Below are positions 1,701 through 42,226 of a DNA stretch of 64,000 bases, one piece after another (within the stretch, counting starts at the first letter, position 1; the number at the start of each line of letters is the position of its first letter). The position numbers and the translations under genes were made by a program. The stretch is taken from the NCBI GenBank assembly GCA_016873615.1, contig VGWX01000002.1:5101-69100 (forward strand). Direction: 5' to 3'. Origin of the DNA: Nitrospira sp. GTDB lineage: Bacteria; Nitrospirota; Thermodesulfovibrionia; Thermodesulfovibrionales; SM23-35. The notes under the pieces are model-generated. The model saw nothing but the letters and a program-made list of their open reading frames with translations. It searched no databases and had not been told where the DNA came from.

Positions 1701-2333
1701 TTATTCTACTAATCCATGTTTCACAGCATAACGGATAACTTCTGCTATGGAATTCATGTTCATTTTTTCAAGTATCCTTGTCCTGTAGGTGCTTACAGTC
1801 TGTATGCTCAGTGATAACTCCTGAGCAATTTCCTTTAATGTCTTTCCCAGGGCTGACATGCACATTACCTGATACTCCCGATCAGAAAGCGTTTCATGAG
1901 ATGGCCTTTCAACATATATCTCCAGTTCAGAGATCAATTTCTCGGCAAGTGAAGCATTGACAAACTTTCCTCCCTTTGAAATTTTCCTTATTGCAGCAAT
2001 CAGTTCATCCGGCGCACTCTCTTTGGTCAGATAACCTGATGCGCCTGCACGTAAAGACCTTACCGCATACTGTTCCTCAGGATGCACACTCAACATGAGG
2101 ACAGGGAGTTTAGGGTTTTTCCTCTTTACCAGCCTGAGAATTTCAAGCCCATTTTTACCGGGCATCGAAATGTCCAGCAGAATCACATCATAATTATTTT
2201 CAGATATCTTATCGAGCGCTTCCAATCCATTGTCTGCTTCTTCAGAGACGATCATATCAGGAGTTTCAGATATAATCTGTTTCAAACCTTTTCGAACAAT
2301 GGCATGATCATCAGCAATAAAGATCTTTATCAT
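1701..2333 (-). CDS. NarL/LuxR-family response regulator (REC + LuxR HTH)
   Basis: 210 aa. MIKIFIADDHAIVRKGLKQI, DVILLDISMPGKNG, C-terminal LSDREYQVMCMSALGKTLKEIAQELSLSIQTVSTYR LuxR-type HTH. Confidence 0.9.
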   Translation of the reverse strand: MIKIFIADDHAIVRKGLKQIISETPDMIVSEEADNGLEALDKISENNYDVILLDISMPGKNGLEILRLVKRKNPKLPVLMLSVHPEEQYAVRSLRAGASGYLTKESAPDELIAAIRKISKGGKFVNASLAEKLISELEIYVERPSHETLSDREYQVMCMSALGKTLKEIAQELSLSIQTVSTYRTRILEKMNMNSIAEVIRYAVKHGLVE

Positions 2334-3771
2334 TCTTCTCTGCTCCCTTATTCAGCGGGATATTGACGTTTATTGTGGTTCCATTGCCGTTAATGCCGGC
2401 AATTCTTACAGTCCCCTGTAACAGATGGACACGCTCCCGTATGCCGGTCAAACCAAATGATTGAGGGCTTGAAAGCTGCTCATCAATAATCCCTTTTCCA
2501 TTATCGGCAACTTCCAGTTCTATTGTATCTGCAGCCTCTCTCAAGCATACTCTTACTAAAGTTGCATGCGCATGTCTTACAATATTAGTCAGGGCTTCCT
2601 GGAGTATGCGGTAAATGGCAGTGGAAGCATCCTGACTCAAAATAATATCATCAGGATCAAGGGTGAGCTCACATTTAATCCCTGTCCTTTTCTGGAATTC
2701 TCCTAATTGCCATTCAATAGCTGCTGCAAGGCCAAGGTCATCCAATAATCCCGGTCTTAGTTCTGCTGAAATCCTTTGCACTGTCTTCACGGCAGTATCG
2801 ATCAGATCTGACATTGATTGTGTCTTTGTGAACAGTGTTTTTTGATCTCCGGGGATTTTGGCGTTTAACCAGCATAAATCCATTTTCAGCGCTGTCAACA
2901 TCTGACCGAGTTCATCATGGATCTCGCGCGCCATATACATCCTTTCCTTTTCCCTTGCAGACTGTAAATGCGCAGAGAGATTACGCAGCTGTTCACGCGA
3001 TCTCCTCAGCTCCTCTTCAGCCTTTTTGCGCTCGGTGATATCTTCAACAATACCTTCATAGTAGAGCAATTCCCCGTTTGTCCCGTATACAGCAATGGCA
3101 TTCTCGGAAATCCATATTTTTCCGCCATCTTTCCGATATGCCTGTGACTCAAATCCCTGTACAACTCTTTTCATGCGCATATGCCGGATAAATTCTCTGT
3201 GACGCTGTGGTTCAACGTGGAGTTGACGCGCTATATCAGTGAGATTCATGATCAGATCTTCGGGCGAATCATACCCGAGGATACGTGACAGCGCAAGGTT
3301 AGCAGTAATATAACGCCCGCTGGGCGCCATCTGATAGATACCGCCTATCGCATTTTCGAAAATAGAGCGATATTTCTTCTCGGCCTCCCGCAGACGCCTG
3401 ACACTTATCGCACGGGATAAAATCTGCCGGAGCATTTCATAATTTAAGGGTTTCAGCATATAATCAAAAGCTCCAACCTTCATTGCATCAACAGCAGACT
3501 GAATTGTCCCCATTCCGGTTATGATTATGCCGAGAAGAGAAGGGTCTATTGTAAGCGCATCCTGTAACAGGGAGATGCCGTCCATTTCAGGCATAATGAG
3601 ATCAGTCAGGAGCAGGTCAAATGTCTGCTCCTTTAATTCCATTAGAGCGTCTTTTCCTGATGTATACCCTGCTACCAGATATCCATAACGCGAAAGCAGG
3701 TCGCACATAGGAGTCAGCGATTCGATATCATCATCAACAATAATCAATCGGCCTGATTCTAATTCAATCAC
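2311..3771 (-). CDS. hybrid REC-PAS-histidine kinase (HisKA_3 / NarX-type)
   Basis: 486 aa. Receiver (DLLLTDLIMPEMDG), PAS, H-box MAREIHDELGQ, HATPase boxes NIVRHA, DNGKGI, GLTGIRER. Overlaps the downstream LuxR regulator by 23 nt. Confidence 0.85.
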   Translation of the reverse strand: MIELESGRLIIVDDDIESLTPMCDLLSRYGYLVAGYTSGKDALMELKEQTFDLLLTDLIMPEMDGISLLQDALTIDPSLLGIIITGMGTIQSAVDAMKVGAFDYMLKPLNYEMLRQILSRAISVRRLREAEKKYRSIFENAIGGIYQMAPSGRYITANLALSRILGYDSPEDLIMNLTDIARQLHVEPQRHREFIRHMRMKRVVQGFESQAYRKDGGKIWISENAIAVYGTNGELLYYEGIVEDITERKKAEEELRRSREQLRNLSAHLQSAREKERMYMAREIHDELGQMLTALKMDLCWLNAKIPGDQKTLFTKTQSMSDLIDTAVKTVQRISAELRPGLLDDLGLAAAIEWQLGEFQKRTGIKCELTLDPDDIILSQDASTAIYRILQEALTNIVRHAHATLVRVCLREAADTIELEVADNGKGIIDEQLSSPQSFGLTGIRERVHLLQGTVRIAGINGNGTTINVNIPLNKGAEKNDKDLYC

Positions 3772-3955
3772 AATAAAAATACCTCTTTATACTATAATTT
3801 ATTATTAGCATTTGCTTCAATGGTTATTTGTTTATTCAGAAATGTAAATGATTATTAAGATTATTAACGTTTTTATTATAGCATTTGATATATATTTACG
3901 CATCTAAAAAATATGATATTGTGCCATTTCGATTATCACGATTTTATAGTATTAT

Positions 3956-31646: not shown

Positions 31647-32891
31647 TTACAAAACTTTAGGTGAAGCGCTGCGGAGGAACAGGGAACCGACTGCGCCTAA
31701 CAGGGCCACGCCAGCGGCAAGCAACAGCGCAGGTGATAAAGAATGGCCGGCATCCGCTATAATTCCGGCAACACTTGGACCCGCAGCCTGGCCAATACCA
31801 AAGAAAAGCGTGACAAAGCCAAGTCCGGCAGGCGCAAGTCTTGGGCCGAGCAGATCTCCGCACGTTGCAGCCATAATTGCAGGGATACTCCATGCTGAGA
31901 GGCCGAAAAGTACAGCAGAAATTATGAATCCGGTCGAAAACGGCCAGAGCGCAAACAAACCGAAGGCAACCGAATGGATAATGTAGACTATCACAAGAGC
32001 TGTTTTGCGGCCAAGTCTGTCCGAGACCGAACCCCAGATCAGTCCGCACAACAGGCTTAACCATCCCATAAGCATGAACAGTCTGCCGGCAGACTCCTGT
32101 GTATATCCACCCTCAGCTATCAGGTATTTTGTAAAGAAAGTCATATAGATGATGTATGAAAATCCATAAGCAACATAAATCAGACCCAAATGCCATACAA
32201 CACCGGACCGATAGACCCTTCCCCAGTTTAATTCTCTCACTTTCGCAGTAATAGTTGTGCTTTCTCCTGCAGCGCCTATTGGAAGAAGTCCGAGTTCCGA
32301 AGGACAATTGCGCAGAATCGTAAAGGCAAGAACCGCCAACCCTAAGGTTATGCCTGCAAACAAAAACCAGCAGATGCGCCAACCGTTCCATCCGTAAGCG
32401 GAAAGCACATGGGGCACAAGAAATCCCAGGACAATCAGCGCTAACGAAGAGCCTGTCACGCCAATCCCTGCAGCCATACCACGGCGACGCTGAACAAACC
32501 ATGCGGCAAGCAGTCCCATGGCTGGAACATTGCTGGCGCCGCTGCCGATACCGGTAACGACCCTCCAGACTGCAGCACTGGCAAAGCTGTTTGCAAGCCC
32601 CGTCATCAGCATGCCCGCAGCCGCCACTGTAAGACCGACCGTGATGACGACCCGCGGACCATATCGTGCTGCAAGGGCCCCTCCCAGAACAGACAGCGCC
32701 AGATATCCAATAAGATTGGCTGTGGCAAGGACACCGGCTTGGGTGTTGCTGAGTCCCAGACCCTGCTGCATAGCGGGCAGCGCCATCGTATAGCCGAACC
32801 GTGCCAATCCCAGAGCGCCAAAGACAACAAGAGTCCCTGCTGCAAGGATAAGCCATGCATAGTGAAAATGTGATGGTTTTATGGGTTTCAA
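31647..32891 (-). CDS. MFS transporter, compositionally foreign (GC-rich)
   Basis: 414 aa, 12 TM-like segments. This is the only place in the window where long shadow ORFs appear in several other frames (31657-32064, 32113-32856, 32518-32793, 32606-32860). That is the hallmark of much higher GC. Confidence 0.85.
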   Translation of the reverse strand: MKPIKPSHFHYAWLILAAGTLVVFGALGLARFGYTMALPAMQQGLGLSNTQAGVLATANLIGYLALSVLGGALAARYGPRVVITVGLTVAAAGMLMTGLANSFASAAVWRVVTGIGSGASNVPAMGLLAAWFVQRRRGMAAGIGVTGSSLALIVLGFLVPHVLSAYGWNGWRICWFLFAGITLGLAVLAFTILRNCPSELGLLPIGAAGESTTITAKVRELNWGRVYRSGVVWHLGLIYVAYGFSYIIYMTFFTKYLIAEGGYTQESAGRLFMLMGWLSLLCGLIWGSVSDRLGRKTALVIVYIIHSVAFGLFALWPFSTGFIISAVLFGLSAWSIPAIMAATCGDLLGPRLAPAGLGFVTLFFGIGQAAGPSVAGIIADAGHSLSPALLLAAGVALLGAVGSLFLRSASPKVL

Positions 32892-32907: not shown

Positions 32908-33927
32908 TTAAAGGCATCTGCCAGATACCTCTGAAAATAATCTCAATTTCTCCATCATTGTGTTGAATTTATTTGGCTTGAGCGATTGCGGACCATCAGA
33001 AGAAGCATGCTCCGGGTCAGGATGCACCTCAACTATCAGCCCATCTGCGCCGGCAGCAATCGCAGCAAAGGCCATTGGAGCTACATACAGATAATTTCCT
33101 GTGGCATGCGATGGGTCTACTACAACCGGCAGATGGGTTTTCTGCTTTAATACCGGAATAGCTGAAAGATCAAGAGTATTGCGGGTTGCGGTCTCAAAGG
33201 TTCGTATGCCGCGCTCACAAAGGATTACTGATTGGTTTCCTTCACTCAGTATATATTCAGCGCTCATGAGCAGTTCCTGAATAGTCATGGACATTCCCCG
33301 TTTTAACAGTACCGGTTTCTTCAGCTGGCCAAGCTTTTTCAGGAGCTCGAAGTTCTGGGCATTTCTTGTTCCAATCTGAAGAATATCCGCATATTCTGCA
33401 ACAAGCTCAGCGGTTTCAGGATTGACAACTTCAGTAATAATCGGCAATCCCGTTGCTTCCCTGGCCTTTGCAAGAAGTTTTAAGCCTTCCTCTTTCATGC
33501 CCTGAAAAGAATATGGAGATGTCCTCGGTTTAAAAGCCCCTCCTCGTAATACTTTTGCACCCGCTTCTTTCACCGCAGCCGCCGCCTCCATAATCTGCTC
33601 CTCGCTTTCGACTGCACATGGTCCTGCAATAACAATGATATCTTTATCACCGATACTCACATTATCACTTATTTTTATGATGCTCGTCTCTTTTTTGACT
33701 TCTCTTGATGCAAGTTTGTAGGGTTTGAGTATAGGCACTACACTTTCAACCCCCTGCATAAATTCGATTGACTGAAGAATCACCTTTCCCCTCTCGTCCC
33801 CGACCGCGCCTATCACATCTCTTGTTGTCCCATGAATAATATGAGGCTTATATCCGAATTCCTTAATTTTCTTAACCACCTCATCCCTCTCACGCTTTGT
33901 TGCCCCTGCCTTCATTACAATGATCAT
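32908..33927 (-). CDS. aroF: 3-deoxy-7-phosphoheptulonate (DAHP) synthase, type I-beta with N-terminal regulatory domain
   Basis: [26 protein letters not shown] ferredoxin-like N-domain, then the KDO8P/DAHP core ([33 protein letters not shown]). Start at 33927 behind AGGAG; the ORF opens at 33960. Confidence 0.88.
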
Positions 33928-33957
33928 TATGACATCTCCTTTCCTCTGCCCGGAAAC

Positions 33958-33988
33958 CAAAAAGGCCGGAGAGTTTTCCCCGGCCTTA
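33958..33988 (-). terminator. intrinsic terminator immediately upstream of aroF (attenuator terminator)
   Basis: Minus-strand AAGGCCGGGG-AAAACT-CTCCGGCCTT (10-bp stem, one G-U) followed by TTTTGGTTT. It ends about 30 nt before the aroF start codon. Confidence 0.7.
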
Positions 33989-34095
33989 ATCTTTTTTATA
34001 AAATAAAAATAGCCGGGGTTGCCTTCCGTCTACCCTCGGCTCCTGGTTGATCTTTTGTGTTAGTTCTGTCTATCTCTCACAATCAACCCTTACCT

Positions 34096-34167
34096 CAGGC
34101 AGACGGCCTAAAGTAAAAGCCGTACCAGAAGTAAAAGCTAAAATATGAGAAACAGATATTATGCATG
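34096..34167 (-). CDS. aromatic-rich leader peptide MHNICFSYFSFYFWYGFYFRPSA
   Basis: 23 codons + TGA, checked codon by codon. 11 of 14 core residues are F/Y/W (6 F, 4 Y, 1 W). Lies between a putative promoter and the aroF terminator hairpin. No obvious SD sequence. Confidence 0.55.
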
Positions 34168-34171
34168 TATA

Positions 34172-34202
34172 TTTTTAACAGATCAGACGAATGAATGTCA
34201 AG
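34172..34202 (-). promoter_or_regulatory. possible sigma70-type promoter for the aroF leader
   Basis: Minus strand TTGACA (34202-34197), 18 nt spacer, TAAAAA(T). The predicted start would fall at or next to the leader ATG (leaderless-like), which weakens or complicates the call. Confidence 0.3.
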
Positions 34203-34219
34203 AAATTACCCGTCCCCGA

Positions 34220-34282
34220 AAAATGCAGAGGGATGGGATAGCCCTCTTTATAACCTGAGAGCTATCAACATCCCTCCTGTGC
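34220..34282 (-). terminator. intrinsic terminator of the porin gene
   Basis: Minus strand CAGGAGGGATG...CATCCCTCTG long imperfect hairpin with an inner ATAGCTCTC/AGAGGGCTAT pairing, followed by CATTTTT. About 25 nt after the porin stop. Confidence 0.55.
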
Positions 34283-34307
34283 AAATATTATTATTTAGAC
34301 TATTGTC

Positions 34308-35744
34308 TTAAATTTTAAACTGGAGCTGCCACCTTAAGAATTGTCCGTTTTTTGCATTGTCAGCATAAAAATCACCTGGGATAAAGTATTCATACTGGAA
34401 AAACGCATCGATATTTTTCGAGAATTTGTGGCTGAGCAATAACGTCGGGAGATGTCCTTTCTCTTTGCCATCGCTGAACATTGCGCTTTGCCCGGCCAGA
34501 GGATTTGCTTTCTCGTTTGACCTGAGATACTGATACGAGAGAGATAACTTAGTATCCGGCGTTAATTCCATACTTACTTTTGCCATATATAACTGGAGAT
34601 TTGTCCAGTAACCTGGAATCGCGTAACCTTCTTTTAAAGTTTCATATATCTGGGTGTAAATAATCAGCTCGTTCCAATATGGATTCCTCGAAAATAAAGG
34701 GTCCCAATTTTCGTTTTTTTCAGAACCAGGATCATCTCCGGACAAACTCACAAAACGAAGCTCAAACTCAGGCTTCAGTTTCATATCAGCAAATTTGCGT
34801 TTCCCAAAGATATACCCTCCATATCCTTCTCTGTCTTGCCCTGAGTATCCTCCACCAGGGGCCTTATTTCCGTCATATTCTCCGAACTGGTAAGCAAATT
34901 CACCGCCCACTGTCCATGGACCGGATGTATATACCGCTCTGGCTCCAATTGTATTCAGATCGAGCTCAGGAGTAGCCGGCCCAATAAGATGTTTTTCTTC
35001 TTTTTTATAAATATAATATGGTTCCACAGTCAGGTTTTCACTGAGTTTATCTCTGCCATAAACGACAAAAGCCTGTTCGTCAGAGGCATTCAGGATCTTT
35101 TTATGTTTGTAATATGTTCCGGCATCTGGAACAGCAGTGCGCCATACCGGCATATATCTATCTCTGAATTGATTGGTGATATAGACAAGATCTACATTGT
35201 GATTCTGGTTTATCCTCCATTTTAGCTTTGCTGCATTAAAGAAGAAAGTCCTTGAACCGTCACCAGGTGTTCCATCACAAATTAAAAATCCCTCGCCATA
35301 CATGTCCGGTCCCAGAAAATCCTGTCTTCCTATTTTCAGGTCAACCGGCAGTCCGAATATATTGTTCGCTTTGATATACAAATTATCAAAGACAAACTCA
35401 TCTTCATCCAGTCTTACGTAATCGTCAATCTTACTCAACGGATCACTTGGTTGCTTATAGGGACCCAGATTATACTTGGCTTCATTGGTAAACTTAAGAT
35501 ATACACCAGTATCCTTATTAAAGTCTGCGCTGCCCCAGAGAGATGTCTTGAAGCGGAAGAAATTTCTGTCGTAATTAGTATTACTTGGGGGCAGTGTTTT
35601 TAAATCCAGCAAATTATCCCATATCTCCTGCCTGATCCTTTCTGAAGCTCCATAATTAAATGTTACTTCAGCAAAAGCAGCTGAAATGAAAAAAACACTC
35701 CCTAACAATACCAGCAATACTACGGCTAAAAATTTTTTCATCAT
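34308..35744 (-). CDS. outer-membrane beta-barrel porin (alginate-export-like)
   Basis: 478 aa. Signal peptide MMKKFLAVVLLVLLGSVFFISAAFA. Alternating aromatic/polar beta-strand pattern throughout, C-terminal WQLQFKI. Confidence 0.6.
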   Translation of the reverse strand: MMKKFLAVVLLVLLGSVFFISAAFAEVTFNYGASERIRQEIWDNLLDLKTLPPSNTNYDRNFFRFKTSLWGSADFNKDTGVYLKFTNEAKYNLGPYKQPSDPLSKIDDYVRLDEDEFVFDNLYIKANNIFGLPVDLKIGRQDFLGPDMYGEGFLICDGTPGDGSRTFFFNAAKLKWRINQNHNVDLVYITNQFRDRYMPVWRTAVPDAGTYYKHKKILNASDEQAFVVYGRDKLSENLTVEPYYIYKKEEKHLIGPATPELDLNTIGARAVYTSGPWTVGGEFAYQFGEYDGNKAPGGGYSGQDREGYGGYIFGKRKFADMKLKPEFELRFVSLSGDDPGSEKNENWDPLFSRNPYWNELIIYTQIYETLKEGYAIPGYWTNLQLYMAKVSMELTPDTKLSLSYQYLRSNEKANPLAGQSAMFSDGKEKGHLPTLLLSHKFSKNIDAFFQYEYFIPGDFYADNAKNGQFLRWQLQFKI

Positions 35745-35842
35745 GTCCCCCTCCTATAGTTTGTAATGATGCAACAGAATACCATAAGTTGTAAATTTTT
35801 TAAACATTTTTCTTTATCCATTTTTCTTTATCCGGATGCCTC

Positions 35843-37141
35843 TCATAATGCCCTTTTGTCTATAACCTTTTTTATTTTTCCGTCAAACCTCTCAAGCCTC
35901 TTTTTCTCAACTGGTTTAACCTCGACAGATACGCCGAGTTCCGATGCAAGCCTCGATTTTATCCGTTCAATAAAATCCTTCTGTTTTCTGACCTGATCGA
36001 AAAATATGGACTCAGACACCTCAACGAGAACAGTTAATTCATCAATTGCAGCTTTTCTCTCCAATATTACCTGAAAATGAGGCTCTGTTCCTTCAATCTC
36101 GAACAAGACTGATTCAATTTGAGATGGAAAAACAGTAATCCCCTTTATCTTGATCATGTCATCTGTCCGACCCAGAACCTTGCTCATTTTAACAAACGTC
36201 CTGCCGCAAGGACAGGGTTCTGTTATCAGGCTTGTCAGATCCCTGGTTCTGAACCGTATCACAGGGAATGCTTCTTTGGTCAGGGTGGTTATAACCAGTT
36301 CACCTGTTTTCCCATCAGGCAAGGGATCGAGGGTTTCCGGATCAACAACCTCGATAAGGAAGTGATCTTCATTAATGTGGAGGCCCTTGCGCTCCTGACA
36401 TTCTCCTGCTACTCCCGGACTCATTACTTCACTCAAACCATAGTTGTCAGTCGCAATGATTTTAAGCTTTTCCTGTAATTCATGCCGCATCGCCTCTGAC
36501 CATGGTTCTGCTCCAAAAAGCCCGTATTTTAGAGACATGGAGTTCACATTAATGCCCATCTCGATGATTGTATCAGCTATTGAAAGCGCATGACCCGGGG
36601 TGCACATAAGGGCAGTTGTTTTGAAATCCTGCATTATTTTTACCTGTCGCCTGGTATTGACACTTGAGATGGGGATTACCGAAGCTCCTATGCGTTCTGC
36701 GCCATAATGCAGACCCAATGCGCCGGTAAAAAGTCCATAATCAAACGCAATCTGAACAATATCGTTTTGAGTAACACCCCCTGCCACAAGAATTCTTGCC
36801 GCAAGGTTCGACCAGTTTTTTATGTCATTGCGTGTATAACCGACGGCCGTCGGCATTCCGGTTGTGCCGGAAGACGCCTGAACCCTGACCACCTCTCGCA
36901 GAGGAACCGCAAACATGCCATATGGATAACTCATTCTCAAATCATCTTTTGAAGTGAAAGGAAGCTTATTTACGTCTTCAAGCGACCGGAAGGAGTCAGG
37001 GTCAATTCCCAATTCATCGAATTTCTTCCTGTAAAAAGGAACATTCATGTAAACTCTTAATACCGCGGCCTGAAGCCTCTCAAGCTGTAACTGCTTAAGA
37101 GCTTCTCTGCTGATACATTCTTTTTCACCTTCCCAGTACAT
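35843..37141 (-). CDS. paaK: phenylacetate--CoA ligase family protein (copy 1)
   Basis: 432 aa. LQLERLQ, ASSGTTGMPT AMP-binding P-loop, YGLSE, C-terminal GKIKKVIDKR. Confidence 0.88.
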   Translation of the reverse strand: MYWEGEKECISREALKQLQLERLQAAVLRVYMNVPFYRKKFDELGIDPDSFRSLEDVNKLPFTSKDDLRMSYPYGMFAVPLREVVRVQASSGTTGMPTAVGYTRNDIKNWSNLAARILVAGGVTQNDIVQIAFDYGLFTGALGLHYGAERIGASVIPISSVNTRRQVKIMQDFKTTALMCTPGHALSIADTIIEMGINVNSMSLKYGLFGAEPWSEAMRHELQEKLKIIATDNYGLSEVMSPGVAGECQERKGLHINEDHFLIEVVDPETLDPLPDGKTGELVITTLTKEAFPVIRFRTRDLTSLITEPCPCGRTFVKMSKVLGRTDDMIKIKGITVFPSQIESVLFEIEGTEPHFQVILERKAAIDELTVLVEVSESIFFDQVRKQKDFIERIKSRLASELGVSVEVKPVEKKRLERFDGKIKKVIDKRAL

Positions 37142-37167
37142 AAAGTCCCTCCATTTTATTTATTGAA

Positions 37168-37902
37168 TCAAACCTTATAGTCAACATCCCTGCCTAAATA
37201 GGCTCTCTGGACATCTCTATTTAAAAGCAGGTCTTCTGCAGGACCCTGGAGTAAGATTCTCCCTGTTTCAAGAACATATCCTGTATTTGCAATCCTCAGG
37301 GCGCTCCTCGCGTTCTGTTCAACCAGAAGCACTGTGAGACCATAGGTGTCCCTTAACTCGATGACGTATCTGAATATCTCCTTGATCACTATCGGGGCAA
37401 GCCCCATGCTCGGTTCATCAAGTAAAAGCAGCTTCGGCCTTGCCATTAAAGCGCGTCCGATAGCAAGCATCTGCTGTTCACCGCCTGAAAGGGTCCCTGC
37501 AAGCTGCTTTCTCCGTTTCTGTAAAATAGGAAAGATAGAGTAAATCATCTCCATATCATCCCTGATTTTTGAACGATTTTTCAGGGAATACCAGTGAAAA
37601 GAGCCGAGCAACAAATTATCCTCAACGCTTAACGGCTTAAAAACAAGGCGTCCTTCAGGGACGTGTGAAATCCCATTTTTTACTATAGCATCCGGGCTTT
37701 GTCCGGAGATATCAAGACCATTGAATGCCAGACTTCCGTTGCTTGACCTGATAAGCCCTGATATGGTGTGCAGGAGAGTTGTTTTGCCTGCTCCATTGCC
37801 GCCGATAAGCGTAACAATCTCTCCCTTGTTTACATGAAGGGAGACCCTTTTAATAGTGTGTATCTTGCCGTAATAGACGTCTACATTTTTAAGTATGAGC
37901 AT
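37168..37902 (-). CDS. livF: branched-chain/aromatic amino-acid ABC transporter ATPase (LivF type)
   Basis: Walker A GGNGAGKTT, signature LSGGEQQML, Walker B LLLLDEP. Start at MLILKNVDVYYG (37902). Confidence 0.88.
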   Translation of the reverse strand: MLILKNVDVYYGKIHTIKRVSLHVNKGEIVTLIGGNGAGKTTLLHTISGLIRSSNGSLAFNGLDISGQSPDAIVKNGISHVPEGRLVFKPLSVEDNLLLGSFHWYSLKNRSKIRDDMEMIYSIFPILQKRRKQLAGTLSGGEQQMLAIGRALMARPKLLLLDEPSMGLAPIVIKEIFRYVIELRDTYGLTVLLVEQNARSALRIANTGYVLETGRILLQGPAEDLLLNRDVQRAYLGRDVDYKV

Positions 37903-38677
37903 TGTATCCTCTCTGAATCTCTTCTTCCTCTCCAAGATACGCAACAATTACTTCATGGTTTTTTTGTATTTCAAGGGGTGTGCCTTCAGCTATTACCTCA
38001 CCGAAGTTAAGGACAATTATCGAGTCACTTATACTCATCACAAGGTCCATATCATGTTCGACAAGGACTACAGTGATCTTCAGCTCATCTCTTATTTTCC
38101 TGATAATCTCTCCAAGATTACGTGTTTCCTTTATATTCAAACCTGCGGCAGGTTCATCCAGAAGTACAAGTCGCGGCCCTGTAGCCAGGGCCCTTCCGAT
38201 TTCCAAAGTCCTCTGTTCACCGATTGGAAGATTTGAGGCAGGTTCATCTTTTCTTTGACCAAGATTTATATACTCCAGAATTTCTTCACTTTTACGCTGT
38301 ATTTCCCTTTCTTCTTTCACAACAAAGGGAAGCTTAAATCCTGAAGAAAGAAATCCGGATCTTGTTCTCGCATATTGACCAACCATTATATTCTCAATAA
38401 CAGTCATGTTTCCGAATAACTCTACATGCTGAAAGGTGCGTGAAATACCCTTTCTGGCGATCCTGGCCGGAGCTACGTTAACTAATTTTTCACCTAAAAA
38501 AAATACATCACCTTTATCAGGCTGATGGATACCGCTCACAATATTGAGCAAGGTGGTTTTACCCGCGCCATTTGGCCCTATAAGCGCCTTAATATCTCCT
38601 TCTATGACGTCAAAACTGACATTTCTCAGGGCCATAAGTCCCCCGAAACTCATCCATATCTCTTTAATGTTTAGCAA
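37889..38677 (-). CDS. livG: amino-acid ABC transporter ATPase (LivG type)
   Basis: GPNGAGKTT, LPIGEQRTLEIGRAL, LVLLDEPAAGL, C-terminal AYLG. Confidence 0.88.
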   Translation of the reverse strand: MLNIKEIWMSFGGLMALRNVSFDVIEGDIKALIGPNGAGKTTLLNIVSGIHQPDKGDVFFLGEKLVNVAPARIARKGISRTFQHVELFGNMTVIENIMVGQYARTRSGFLSSGFKLPFVVKEEREIQRKSEEILEYINLGQRKDEPASNLPIGEQRTLEIGRALATGPRLVLLDEPAAGLNIKETRNLGEIIRKIRDELKITVVLVEHDMDLVMSISDSIIVLNFGEVIAEGTPLEIQKNHEVIVAYLGEEEEIQRGYNAHT

Positions 38678-39614
38678 CAGCGAACTCTCTCAATTTCTTT
38701 ATTTTTTCGATCAGGATCGGGACTATTCCCTTTCTGAAAAACATGAGGGATAACGTCAGGATCAAACCATACACCAGCACATCCAATTCTTCAAATCTTC
38801 TCAACAGCTCCGGCAACACCGTAATCACCACAGCTCCGATGACAGCGCCCCACAGGTTCGTAATCCCTCCGACAATTACCATCATGAGGACTAATATCGA
38901 GTAAAATAACGAAAAACTGCTCGGACTGATGAATGTCACATAATGTGCATAGAGACTGCCGGCCAATGACGCATATACCGCGCTAAGGATAAAAACTTTT
39001 ATTTTGAGTGCAGTGACATTCAGCCCCATCGCATTACATGCCATATCACTGTCGTGGATAGCCCTCAATGCCCTTCCTGTCCCTGAGTTAATTAAATTTA
39101 TGGAGAAGAGCATTACAACAGCAACAAGACCCCATATCAGATAAAAATAGCCTGTTGTTGAACCTATTGTATAACCTAAAAGGCCGAAATGGGGGATATC
39201 TCCGAAACCTGACGGACCACCCGGGCCCCATTCATTCAGGATTATATAGATGATTTCGCCAAAACCAAGGGTGGCTACTGCCAGGTAATGCCCTTTCAAT
39301 CTAAGGGCAGGGACTGCCAGAATCATTGCTGCAACGGCAGCAACAATCATTGCGCATATCACACTGATAACTATCGGAAGCCCTGCATGCACGCTTAATA
39401 TCGATGAGATATAAGCGCCGATCCCGTAAAACCCTGCCTGCCCTAAAGATACTTGCCCTGCATATCCCATAAGTATGCATAACCCTATGGCTACCAGGGC
39501 GTTTATTCCGGAGAATATTCCTACAGTAATGGTATAGGTGCTGCCTGAGATAACAGGCAAGAGGATAATGAGAAGTATAAAGATCAGGAAAGATAATAAA
39601 TCCCCTTTTTTCAT
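38664..39614 (-). CDS. livM: amino-acid ABC transporter permease (LivM type)
   Basis: 316 aa polytopic. GYAGQVSLGQAGFYGIGAY motif. Confidence 0.85.
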   Translation of the reverse strand: MKKGDLLSFLIFILLIILLPVISGSTYTITVGIFSGINALVAIGLCILMGYAGQVSLGQAGFYGIGAYISSILSVHAGLPIVISVICAMIVAAVAAMILAVPALRLKGHYLAVATLGFGEIIYIILNEWGPGGPSGFGDIPHFGLLGYTIGSTTGYFYLIWGLVAVVMLFSINLINSGTGRALRAIHDSDMACNAMGLNVTALKIKVFILSAVYASLAGSLYAHYVTFISPSSFSLFYSILVLMMVIVGGITNLWGAVIGAVVITVLPELLRRFEELDVLVYGLILTLSLMFFRKGIVPILIEKIKKLREFAVAKH

Positions 39615-39617
39615 GTG

Positions 39618-40505
39618 CTAAAACTTTCGCAACTGATGCATTGCTTTACTGACAAATATTCCGGCAGGCTTAAAAAAAAGGATTAACAGAAGAATGATTA
39701 AAGCTACTGCATCCTTCAGCCCTGAATGTATGTATCCCGCGGTCATGGATTCGAGGATGCCGATGATAAATCCGCCGATAACCGCGCCTCTGTTTGTGCC
39801 AAGACCTCCCATTATTGCCGCACAAAACCCCTTTACCGCAAGCATGGGACCTTTGTCATATTCCATAAGGGAAATAGGAGTTATCGCCATGCCTCCAATT
39901 GCGCCTACCACAGCGCTTAAAACAAAGGATAACATGACCATTCTGGATACATTGATTCCAACCAGTTTAGCTGCAGTAGGATTCACTGCACAGGCGAGCA
40001 TTGCCTTCCCGACCATTGTCTTTTTAAAGAAGAAAAACAATAAAATGATACAGAAACCGGTAATGCCTATTACCCATAGTGTCTGTTGCTGAATAATTGC
40101 CCCATAGATACTCAAAGGTTCTCCTTCTGTAAAGGAAGGGTAAACATAGGGATCTTTGCCGAAAGCAAACATTAAAATCCCGCGCAACACGATTGAAACT
40201 GCTATGGTAATCATGATCATCAATAACAGATCCGGATTTTTTAAAGGCTTTATAGTCAGTCTTTCCATTAAAAGCCCTACAATACCTGCGGAAATAATAG
40301 TGAACGCAACAGATACAAGGAATGGGAGTTTAAGTGATTCGGCAAAAAACCACATCATGAGCCCGCCTATCACGACAAATTCACCCTGGGCAAGGTTTAT
40401 GATAGAAGTGGCATTATATGTGATATTAAAGCCTATGCCAACTAAGGCATAAACAGCCCCGACGGTAAGACCGGAAAAAAGGAATTGTAAAAAGACTGTA
40501 AGCAA
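39618..40505 (-). CDS. livH: amino-acid ABC transporter permease (LivH type)
   Basis: 295 aa polytopic. INLAQGEFVVIGG motif. Confidence 0.85.
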   Translation of the reverse strand: MLTVFLQFLFSGLTVGAVYALVGIGFNITYNATSIINLAQGEFVVIGGLMMWFFAESLKLPFLVSVAFTIISAGIVGLLMERLTIKPLKNPDLLLMIMITIAVSIVLRGILMFAFGKDPYVYPSFTEGEPLSIYGAIIQQQTLWVIGITGFCIILLFFFFKKTMVGKAMLACAVNPTAAKLVGINVSRMVMLSFVLSAVVGAIGGMAITPISLMEYDKGPMLAVKGFCAAIMGGLGTNRGAVIGGFIIGILESMTAGYIHSGLKDAVALIILLLILFFKPAGIFVSKAMHQLRKF

Positions 40506-40572
40506 ATTGTGATATTTCCTGAAGAGAATTGAGGGGATGTTGCCATCCCCTCAATTGTTCAATCATTTATTT

Positions 40573-41733
40573 TTATTTCAGAATTTCCCAATCGCCGTTT
40601 TTCACTACCACCATCTCAAAGGCGGTCTTGTCTAAACCGCAATGGTCATCCTTCGACATATTAAAAATACCGCCTGTCCCGGGCCATTTCTGGATATTCG
40701 TCTCTATATAATCCCTGATCTTCTTTTTATCAGGCCCTACTTTTTTCAATGCTTCAACTATCATCATAATGGCATCATACGCATGTCCGCCAAACGTGCC
40801 CGGCTCGCTCTTGTATAATGCCTCATAATCCTGTGTATATTTTTTCAATAAAGCTTTCTGGGGGTGCTTATCAGGGAGCTTATCCCATACAACCAATCTT
40901 CCGAGCGGCGCAATGACTCCTTCAGCAGCCTTTCCTGCAAGTTCTATGTTTTTCTTGCTTCCCCAGCCGTGGCTTTGATAGAGTGGGATTCCCATTTTAA
41001 GCGCCTGCCAGTTTTTCGTCACAACTACCTGACCCGGCCCTACCGACCAGTTGATCACTGCCTGGGCGCCTGCTGCCTTAATTTTGGTAAGCTGTGTCGT
41101 CATATCTGAATCTTTTGGCCCGTATTTCTCTTCTGCAACAATAGTAATGCCATATTTGGGAGCTATTTCAAGGAGCGCCTTTTTCCCGGCATCGCCAAAG
41201 CCTGTGGATATAGTGATAATTCCGATCTTGCTTATGCCCTGCTTTTTCATATACCCATAGATTGCTTCTACTGCGCTGATATCATACTGAGGTGTTTTGA
41301 AAATCCAGGTGCGATCTTTTACCGGCTGGGTTATTGGAGCTCCGGCTGCGCATGAAAGAAGCGGAGTAGCAGCGGTGTTCATAATCGGGACTAATGCCAT
41401 TGATTCACCTGTTGTAGACGGCCCTACAATAGCCAGCACCTTATCATTTTCAAGAAGTTTTTTGGCAGAGAGAACAGCCTGTGTTTCATCACTCTTTGTG
41501 TCCTCAATAATAATTTCCAGAGGATGTCCGTTTATACCACCCGCTTTATTGATCTGATCCTTAAGCATTACTGCGGTATTTTTTTCAGGTTCTCCCAAAA
41601 AAGAAGCAGGCCCGGTTACCGCAAAAAGAGCTCCTATTCTATAGGGTTCTTTTGCGTATGCATTCACGAATAAGAAAAAAACAGATAATGCTGCTACCAA
41701 AACTACGAGAAATCTTTTCGGCGCTTTTTCCAT
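40573..41733 (-). CDS. periplasmic amino-acid-binding protein (Leu/Ile/Val-binding family fold)
   Basis: 386 aa. Signal peptide, YRIGALFAVTGPASFLG, type-I PBP layout. Confidence 0.82.
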   Translation of the reverse strand: MEKAPKRFLVVLVAALSVFFLFVNAYAKEPYRIGALFAVTGPASFLGEPEKNTAVMLKDQINKAGGINGHPLEIIIEDTKSDETQAVLSAKKLLENDKVLAIVGPSTTGESMALVPIMNTAATPLLSCAAGAPITQPVKDRTWIFKTPQYDISAVEAIYGYMKKQGISKIGIITISTGFGDAGKKALLEIAPKYGITIVAEEKYGPKDSDMTTQLTKIKAAGAQAVINWSVGPGQVVVTKNWQALKMGIPLYQSHGWGSKKNIELAGKAAEGVIAPLGRLVVWDKLPDKHPQKALLKKYTQDYEALYKSEPGTFGGHAYDAIMMIVEALKKVGPDKKKIRDYIETNIQKWPGTGGIFNMSKDDHCGLDKTAFEMVVVKNGDWEILK

Positions 41734-41794
41734 GATCTCCTCCCTTAGTTGAATTATTCGGGGATTGATTCTCCCCGGTTTCTAAAAAATTTCT

Positions 41795-42226
41795 TCACAG
41801 CGCGGAGAGTTCTTCTCCTCCCAGTATCCTTACACCCGCCTGCTGCAATATGTCAACAGACTTCTCAAACTCATCAAAACGGAAGATAACAATAGCATTT
41901 TCTCCGCTCTTTTCGACAAAGGCATACATATATTCTACGTTTATCCCTTCATCTTTTATGGTGTTCAGAATACTTGAGAGTCCTCCAGGTCTATCCGGCA
42001 CTTCAATTGCAACAACCCTCGTTTTCTCAACAGTAAAACCATTCTCTTTTAAAGCCTGCCGTGCCTTCTCCGTTTCATTCACAATAAGTCTCAATATCCC
42101 GAAATCAGCTGTATCGGCAAGATAAAGAGCCCTTATATTTATTCCTGCTTCAGATAAAACAGATGTTACCTCGGCAAGCCTCCCTGACTTGTTCTCAAGA
42201 AATATGGATATCTGTTCAACATTCAT
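41795..42226 (-). CDS. tandem ACT-domain protein (copy 1)
   Basis: 143 aa. ISIFLENKSGRLAEVTSVLSEAGINIRAL and a second ACT ([28 protein letters not shown]). Confidence 0.8.
   Translation of the reverse strand: MNVEQISIFLENKSGRLAEVTSVLSEAGINIRALYLADTADFGILRLIVNETEKARQALKENGFTVEKTRVVAIEVPDRPGGLSSILNTIKDEGINVEYMYAFVEKSGENAIVIFRFDEFEKSVDILQQAGVRILGGEELSAL

Follow-up and report, generated by a model that had tools for sequence, protein, structure and literature searches.

A predicted leader-peptide attenuator rich in phenylalanine, tyrosine and tryptophan codons upstream of aroF in Nitrospirota and Desulfobacterota

We analysed a 64,000-nt stretch of DNA from Nitrospira sp. (assembly GCA_016873615.1, contig VGWX01000002.1, positions 5,101 to 69,100), referred to here as the window, and focused on the region that precedes aroF, the gene for 3-deoxy-D-arabino-heptulosonate 7-phosphate (DAHP) synthase. 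In this region the minus strand carries a short open reading frame (ORF) crowded with Phe, Tyr and Trp codons, followed by a chain of alternative RNA helices. Judged from sequence comparison and modelled folding, the element is very probably a ribosome-mediated (leader-peptide) transcription attenuator of aroF. Its parts are given below with the kind of evidence for each; helices P1 to P4 keep the names they had in an earlier reading made without database searches (the sequence-only reading).

34166-34095, minus strand: leader ORF, 23 codons plus UGA, MHNICFSYFSFYFWYGFYFRPSA (ORF reading, conservation, codon-level signal)
34110..34151, minus strand: sensor codons 6-19, with 6 Phe, 4 Tyr and 1 Trp (codon analysis and ribosome masking)
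34156-34117, minus strand: segment 1, the 5' arm of the 1:2 hairpin, leader codons 4-17, including UGG-UAC-GGC (folding)
34109-34069, minus strand: segment 2, the 3' arm of the 1:2 hairpin, which holds the P1 5' strand and the 5' arm of the spacer hairpin (folding)
34106-34097, minus strand: P1 5' strand, CCGUCUGCCU, codons Pro-Ser-Ala and the U of the stop (RNAalifold, pairing counts)
34088-34045, minus strand: spacer hairpin M, GGUUGAU ... AUCAACC, nested in P1 (per-sequence folding)
34035-34026, minus strand: P1 3' strand, GGGUAGACGG, overlapping the T1 5' arm and loop (RNAalifold, pairing counts)
34000..34040, minus strand: T1 (helix P2), stem 34040-34033 with 34018-34012, then UAUUUUUAUUUU at 34011-34000 (folding)
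33978..34018, minus strand: P3, CCCCGGC at 34018-34012 with GCCGGGG at 33984-33978, 7 bp (folding, covariation)
33957..33987, minus strand: T2 (helix P4), stem 33987-33977 with 33972-33962 (terminator scan, folding)

Under the mechanism that we propose, a sigma-70-type promoter would start the transcript at or near the AUG, and the 23-codon ORF would be translated without a Shine-Dalgarno sequence. The leader RNA would act as a six-segment chain with two sets of pairings: a terminating set made up of 1:2 (or a ribosome on segment 2), 3:4 (T1) and 5:6 (T2), and a read-through set made up of 2:3 (P1, closed around M) and 4:5 (P3). When Phe-, Tyr- and Trp-tRNA are all charged, the ribosome would reach the UGA in segment 2 and cover the P1 5' strand, so that T1 and then T2 would form and the polymerase would terminate before aroF. 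When the leader is not translated, the very stable 1:2 hairpin would hold segment 2 and lead to the same termination outcome. When any one of the three charged tRNAs is scarce, a ribosome stalled at codons ~8-17 would melt segment 1 and leave segment 2 free; P1 would form once segment 3 is transcribed, T1 would be blocked, and the freed T1 3' arm would pair with the T2 5' arm (P3), thereby blocking T2 and allowing read-through into aroF. The start site, the translation of the ORF, the stalling, and the choice of T1 or T2 as the main terminator are the parts of this scheme that we infer.

The leader ORF has its ATG at 34166 and its UGA at 34097-34095. The sequence-only reading had counted six Phe, four Tyr and one Trp within 14 residues, and our codon analysis bore this out for residues 6-19; its coordinates were all too high by one, the ORF really lying at 34166-34095. 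With 11 aromatic residues per 14, this was the sole outlier among the short ORFs on both strands of the 64-kb window, where the runner-up had 8, and the maximum count in 30 Markov-random windows was 6-9.

We compared the window with the 80 best aroF loci from 185,579 species genomes, labelled L001 onward. The closest loci came from metagenome-assembled genomes (MAGs) of Thermodesulfovibrionales (Nitrospirota), at 86-90% amino-acid identity, and the next from Geobacteraceae and Thermodesulfovibrio, at 75-81% identity. A Phe/Tyr/Trp-rich short ORF was found 130-300 nt before aroF in ~50 of the 80 loci and in several phyla; carriers included Thermodesulfovibrionales, Geobacterales and Syntrophales, and Planctomycetota had analogous forms. 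The motif F-x-F-W-[YF]-G-F-Y-F-[RK]-P-S-A was common to the leaders of Thermodesulfovibrionales and Geobacterales, those of Thermodesulfovibrio read ...CSWRVFFFFFFTPS... or ...NWWWSFFFMPS..., and those of Syntrophales and other delta-type lineages read FFYFWSYYYFPLVCPS or RFFWFYFNFSPSA. The sequence-only reading had staked its model on the conservation of leader ORF and helices before orthologous aroF genes, and both were kept there. A pattern for the 30-nt leader core was also found in 86 metagenome contigs. All of those that reached far enough downstream (79/79) carried aroF on the same strand, 180-330 nt away, and we concluded that the element is tied specifically to DAHP synthase.

The leader ORF is preceded by a predicted promoter of the sigma-70 type, with these elements:

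34201-34196, minus strand: -35 hexamer TTGACA (sequence; (C)TTGACA is conserved in relatives)
34180-34172, minus strand: extended -10, TG-T-TAAAAA (sequence; 5 nt before the A of the leader ATG)

The spacer is 18 nt long, and the 35 nt that separate the first T of the -35 from the ATG match the canonical distance between -35 and +1. This distance was fixed at 35-37 nt in nearly all Thermodesulfovibrionales and Geobacterales loci, and was 35-38 nt in 64 of 77 metagenome copies. In the Thermodesulfovibrionales and Geobacterales loci the start codon was always ATG, and no Shine-Dalgarno sequence was found before it. The transcript probably starts on, or within 1-2 nt of, the leader AUG; a start downstream of the leader ORF, which would have undone the sequence-only reading, is not what the promoter predicts. 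Because the predicted start falls on the AUG, the leader ORF is probably leaderless, and the promoter geometry suggests that it is translated from a leaderless transcript. Leader-peptide ORFs of Deinococcus deserti likewise start at the transcript 5' end with no Shine-Dalgarno (PMC4007540). The starts in that species were mapped by differential RNA sequencing, whereas the leaderless start proposed here comes from promoter geometry alone.

Folding showed that each of the proposed states was thermodynamically plausible. The 246-nt leader folded with z = -6.1 relative to shuffles. The 1:2 hairpin (34156-34069) was nearly perfect, at -45.3 kcal/mol and z = -9.2; at its apex the conserved UGG-UAC-GGC pairs with GCCGUCUGCC, and 1:2-type hairpins of other sequence recurred in close relatives and in Geobacterales. 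P1 has 10 bp, 2 of them G-U, and its 5' strand can be extended by GGU at 34094-34092. P1 and T1 are mutually exclusive, as GGG and loop nucleotides are common to both. Hairpin M keeps its position and differs in sequence (GGUGUAA/UUACACC in Geobacterales; CCUGAUAC/GUAUCAGG in L036-38); folding of individual sequences placed it in Thermodesulfovibrionales, Geobacterales and L036-38, and it was absent in Syntrophales. T1 consists of 7 bp plus a bulged A around a 14-nt loop (-15.2 kcal/mol), and P3 (-17.1 kcal/mol) can be extended by pairing between the U-tract and an A-run. T2, with 11 bp, a 4-nt loop (AAAC) and a following U5 (-19.6 kcal/mol), is a canonical intrinsic terminator.

Counts of pairing, and those of switch logic below, refer to a 46-sequence set of loci, whereas RNAalifold was run on 37 leaders and returned P1 and T2 as the consensus helices. 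The read-through helices taken together (P1, M and P3) were 77% paired, compared with 34-50% when the partners were slid by 1-3 columns; the terminating helices (1:2 apex, M, T1 and T2) were 78.7% paired, compared with 31-59% when slid. The P1 core was ~94% paired, with changes from CG to UA and among GC, GU and AU. P3 was 94.7% paired, with CG-to-AU changes in 10 sequences and CG-to-UA in 7. T1 was 84% paired and showed GC-to-AU changes, and T2 was 95.6% paired, with two-sided (compensatory) changes at 7 of its 10 pairs. Pairs of M were judged by folding each sequence and not counted from the MAFFT alignment, where they align poorly (46.6% paired). Compensatory changes were thus seen in each of P1, P2, P3 and P4, so that all four helices of the sequence-only reading were correct as pairings and were conserved across phyla; that reading had overlooked the 1:2 hairpin, hairpin M within P1 and the probable leaderless start.

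The stems of T1 and T2 co-varied by clade, with CCGG, CAUGG and CGCGG cores and with CUCCCCC/GGGGGAG in Geomonas. This joint change fits selection for 4:5 pairing, the alternative being concerted evolution of two similar hairpins. In L046 and L051, segment 5 pairs with two partners by means of G-U wobbles, which favours dual pairing of this segment. Duplex energies of P3, with arms extracted automatically from 123 sequences, had a median of -20.5 against -12.6 for shuffled arms; the arms were over-extended, and the comparison is weakly informative.

Two hairpins in the leader have to be weighed as terminators. The tail of T1 was U-rich (>=6 of 9) in 37/46 loci, the window included, and that of T2 in 34/46. 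T1 looks like the first of two coupled terminators, judged from its tail, and its 14-nt loop is atypical. The sequence-only reading had cast P4 as the terminator and P2 as a decoy only; the first role holds, and the second does not fit the U-tract that P2 has of its own in the 37 loci. The reading that survives best beside ours is that T2 is the sole terminator, with P2 a mere anti-antiterminator and the 1:2 hairpin not needed. T2 was the lone canonical terminator called in the scan, which passed over T1 with its 14-nt loop, and in Geomonas (L013, L017), L036-38 and L024 the tail of T2 is U-rich but that of T1 is not. However, a pure decoy helix would not need the U-rich tail that T1 has in most loci; some Geobacterales (L005, L006, L011, L012, L027) show the reverse, a poor T2 tail and a good T1 tail; and the very stable 1:2 hairpin recurs in relatives. 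We consider a T2-only switch unlikely, while granting it more weight than any of the alternatives below.

We used folding with a masked ribosome to compare the states of the switch. The footprint covered A-site -15 to +13, and the transcript was cut just before segment 4. In the window, P1 had a probability of 0.00 both in the absence of a ribosome and with one on the stop codon, whose UGA overlaps the P1 5' strand; stalls at 9 of the 11 aromatic codons raised this probability above 0.5. When the downstream edge of the footprint was varied from +9 to +17, codons 8-17 stayed effective and the stop-codon state stayed off. Effective aromatic codons were found in all 46 loci, and Phe, Tyr and Trp were all among them in 42. 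At equilibrium, the full leader gave T1 = 1.00 and T2 = 0.95 with no ribosome or with a ribosome at the stop, and P1 of 0.63-0.85 and P3 of 0.55-0.78 with a stall at W14 or Y15. We judged full-length equilibrium folding to be the wrong model for a kinetic switch, and used cut-transcript folding instead. The minimum-energy fold contained P2 and P4, and the constrained folds contained P1 and P3, in line with the alternatives that the sequence-only reading had paired by hand. Its sign for the logic, in which a ribosome at the stop codon permits P2 and P4 and a stall on aromatic codons permits P1 and P3, was likewise supported by the ribosome-mask folding.

The fold constrained to the antiterminated state also paired UCUCC with GGAGA, and the stretch from T2 to the aroF Shine-Dalgarno contains a conserved UUUCCGGG-like block. 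These features would suit a switch that acts mainly on aroF translation or on mRNA stability, for example by pairing of the freed T2 3' arm with the Shine-Dalgarno. Such pairing has the wrong sign, since aroF translation would be repressed just when transcription reads through. It amounts to no more than 5 bp and shows no evident conservation in Geobacterales, and the U-tracts after both hairpins point to intrinsic termination. We regard control of this kind as very improbable.

The leaders themselves indicate that selection on the ORF is at the codon level, as read from their alignment. The aromatic fraction was 0.67 in frame, compared with 0.20 and 0.19 in the other two frames. The Trp codon was invariant in 33/33 aligned leaders, Phe and Tyr exchanged with one another, and TTT/TTC and TAT/TAC alternated; the Phe/Tyr swaps and synonymous changes extended to the N-terminal part, where the nucleotide sequence is unconserved. 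All three aromatic residues were present in 46/49 leaders. The conserved non-aromatic residues, Gly16 and Arg-Pro-Ser-Ala, fall on base-paired nucleotides, and RNA structure accounts for their conservation better than a function of the peptide does.

This last point, together with the location of the aromatic codons in the U-rich arm of a long hairpin, could be taken to mean that the ORF is untranslated and that the RNA is a ligand- or protein-binding switch (riboswitch-like or TRAP-like) whose U-rich arm reads as Phe and Tyr by chance. Chance does not account for a bias confined to one frame, for Phe/Tyr swaps and synonymous changes where the RNA sequence drifts, or for Planctomycetota sequences that differ while the amino-acid bias is the same. 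Moreover, the fixed distance from promoter to ATG, the open frame, and a stop in or just past segment 2 are kept despite differing nucleotides, and no Rfam match was found. A switch of this type is less probable still. Least probable of all is a functional hydrophobic micro-protein followed by ordinary terminators or processing signals, since the strong conservation of FYFW[YF]GFYF[RK]PSA that would favour it coincides, at the non-aromatic residues, with paired nucleotides, other clades keep the aromatic composition only and not the sequence, a terminator before the next gene's Shine-Dalgarno and a covarying antiterminator over the ORF end are unexpected for a plain small gene, and the peptides have no protein-family match and are missing from the protein collection that was searched.

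Several points weigh against the attenuator as we describe it. The evidence is wholly computational, and the host organism is known from metagenome assemblies. The terminator scan, as noted, called T2 but not T1. Equilibrium folding of the full-length leader dropped T1 below 0.5 for some stall in only 27/46 loci, so that kinetic, co-transcriptional precedence of P1 is required; the classical trp attenuator likewise depends on kinetic precedence. P1 formed even without a ribosome in 24/46 loci on the cut transcript, mostly in Geobacterales, and the termination state in the absence of translation is therefore not universal. P3 was weak (<=5 bp contiguous) in a metagenomic subclass (L102, L121, L161), so that coupling of T1 to T2 is not universal either. 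Covariation came largely from a few deep clade splits, which means few independent events. Leaderless translation in these phyla is an assumption. While we are highly confident of attenuation as such, we hold its finer details, namely the leaderless start, T1 as a working terminator and the coupling through P3, with only moderate confidence.

The mechanism is textbook, and the closest comparison is with the enterobacterial pheA (pheL) and trp (trpL) attenuators. Those share a short ORF with codons for the end product, 1:2, 2:3 and 3:4 alternatives, a stop codon that lets the terminating ribosome mask segment 2, and an intrinsic terminator before the structural gene. Unlike pheL and trpL, the present element has no Rfam-level homology, targets the pathway entry enzyme and not a terminal branch, uses three amino acids per leader, is probably leaderless, and has two terminator-like hairpins. 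The his leader of Salmonella and E. coli has six segments, with A:B, C:D and E:F formed in termination and B:C and D:E in read-through. Our element follows the same domino logic (1:2 with T1 and T2 versus P1 with P3). However, only E:F terminates in the his leader, whereas here the middle hairpin T1 has a U-tract in most loci, and the sensor codons are Phe, Tyr and Trp in place of seven His.

The sequence-only reading had thought leader control of DAHP synthase new for this kind of organism. Such control is known in Corynebacterium and predicted in Acholeplasma; what does stand is that this leader family is uncatalogued. According to the accounts in PMC11802643 and PMC7356990, which draw on Neshat 2014, the aroR leader of Corynebacterium glutamicum (Phe-Tyr-Phe) controls aroF, expression rises when ribosomes stall under Phe limitation, and the response is to Phe and not to Tyr. 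An aromatic leader peptide before a DAHP synthase gene is a direct functional precedent. The present element belongs to another phylum and has another leader, a distinction drawn from the description of aroR (its Phe-Tyr-Phe motif) and not from its sequence. The uORFC-13-1 motif (Brewer et al. 2021, PMC8632094), predicted before aroF and confined to Acholeplasma plus some environmental sequences, likewise combines a predicted upstream ORF containing Phe codons, promoter elements and an intrinsic terminator before DAHP synthase. It differs in having a ribosome-binding site and a U run coding at least one Phe, not mixed Phe/Tyr/Trp, and it did not match the window in the Rfam scan.

In Bacillota, aroF orthologues carry T-box leaders at the same place, with scores of 103-138 bits. 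The same gene, the same position and the sensing of tRNA charging to control a terminator are shared; unlike our element, a T-box makes direct contact with the uncharged tRNA and needs no upstream ORF. Since these orthologues have T-boxes there, a response to tRNA charging looks like a recurring solution at aroF. One enzyme would be served by differing sensors according to phylum: a T-box in Bacillota, aroR in Corynebacterium, and an aromatic leader here. T-boxes lay directly before aroF in L049, L057, L059, L061, L073 and L077, the last having two within 3 kb (940-1169 and 3702-3948).

Searches of catalogues and literature returned no record of the element. A cmscan of 33500-34700 at E up to 10 found no Rfam Phe_leader, Trp_leader or His_leader, the window scan found no T-box (RF00230), and Rfam 15 gave no match at gathering score in the window or at 12 related loci. 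Two sub-threshold candidates, RcsR1 (28 bits, gathering score 60) and the trpB motif (24 bits, gathering score 59), were rejected as products of chance or of the terminators, since both align only through the two hairpins and U-tracts. The leader peptides had no NCBIfam or Pfam match, and an exact-sequence look-up of six of them found none in a collection of 15 billion proteins. Full-text literature searches found no description of the leader family for Geobacter, Nitrospirota or Syntrophales, and the element is not described in Rodionov 2004 (delta-proteobacterial regulons), Naville and Gautheret 2010, Seliverstov 2005, or the TyrA-context paper. A family common to several little-studied phyla thus seems unrecorded. 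On balance we lean, if only somewhat, towards a new attenuator family in Nitrospirota and Desulfobacterota, with analogous Planctomycetota forms, in which a leaderless ORF would read three tRNAs and a single stall would disable two terminators.

If so, Yanofsky-type attenuation would be extended to Nitrospirota, Geobacterales and Syntrophales, groups whose gene regulation is poorly known, and the element would be a compact natural sensor that apparently integrates all three aromatic amino acids. Two coupled terminators and a probable leaderless start would recommend it for probing transcription-translation coupling beyond model organisms, and it is directly testable in that several cultured Geobacteraceae carry the leader; cultured carriers include Oryzomonas japonica Red96, Geomonas propionica Red259, Geomobilimonas luticola and Geobacter argillaceus. 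For annotation, an unannotated ORF of 23-32 codons and a regulatory RNA before aroF can be flagged in many genomes and MAGs.

Variants of the leader were also seen. In Planctomycetota (L062, L066, L068), unrelated ORFs (SFWYSFWFTY, WSFWAFYFF, GWFGFYFWF) lie ~130-310 nt before aroF, and behind each comes one canonical terminator, the 5' arm of which is complementary to the ORF end; these leaders either arose independently or are very distant relatives. Leaders of the Syntrophales type (L041-L052) have a Shine-Dalgarno and a conserved MDR... N-terminus, not a leaderless start, and their stop lies ~14 nt past segment 2, so that a stop-codon ribosome only partly blocks P1 in the masking model. L039 has T1/T2-like hairpins (CCCCCGGCUUUUUU ... 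GGGCCGCG...CACGGCCUUUU) ~260-340 nt before aroF, ~260 nt further out than usual, with AT-rich repeats (GGAATGATGGAATATTGGAATGATG ... ATTCCAACATTCCATTATTCCAACATTCCAA) between the hairpins and aroF, as if sequence had been inserted behind the attenuator. In comparisons with L005-L035 and with L024, L026 and L032, the leader peptide and RNA of the window were closer to those of Geobacterales, another phylum, than to those of Thermodesulfovibrio, in the same order-level group. AroF itself is about equally like both (75-81%). From sequence likeness, this suggests that the attenuator and aroF may have moved laterally as a cassette.

The element sits among the following features.

34283-34215, minus strand: terminator of the upstream Alginate_exp gene (hairpin 34283-34224, then AUUUUU; z = -4.6)
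33936..33941, minus strand: aroF Shine-Dalgarno AAGGAG (sequence; 8 nt before the ATG at 33927)
33927-32908, minus strand: aroF, type I-beta DAHP synthase with an N-terminal ferredoxin-like regulatory domain (Pfam, homologues)
31647-32891, minus strand: major facilitator superfamily (MFS) transporter gene, directly behind aroF, with a 16-nt gap to the TTG start of the longest ORF

Because the upstream gene has a terminator of its own, the leader opens a separate transcription unit. The aroF product matched DAHP_synth_1 (1.8e-87) and DAHP_snth_FXD (6e-21) in Pfam, and full-length homologues were found. In the DAHP synthase of Thermotoga, it is through the ferredoxin-like domain that aromatic amino acids exert feedback inhibition; should the domain act likewise here, AroF would be controlled at the levels of both activity and transcription. 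Synteny of the MFS gene extends to the four closest relatives (L001-L004), with gaps of ~90-260 nt, and this gene may come under the same attenuator by co-transcription with aroF. A conserved block, GGUUUCCGGG here and UUUGUGGGA or UUUCGGGG in Geobacterales, occupies 33949-33958 on the minus strand, past T2 and ahead of the aroF Shine-Dalgarno; it sits at columns ~224-234 of alignment A2, with no partner strand assigned.

Further upstream, a cluster at 34308-42226 on the minus strand encodes an ACT-domain-pair protein, a five-gene Liv-type (branched-chain/aromatic-type) ATP-binding cassette transporter, a PaaK-like aryl-CoA ligase (AMP-binding_C_2) and the Alginate_exp outer-membrane protein. 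In L001-L004 the genes for the ligase and the outer-membrane protein keep their synteny, and the cluster may be a module for the uptake or activation of aromatic acids beside an aromatic biosynthesis gene. Lastly, the Geobacter argillaceus locus (L031) carries a cobalamin riboswitch (1871-2056, minus strand; 125 bits) ~2 kb before aroF that is unrelated to the leader.

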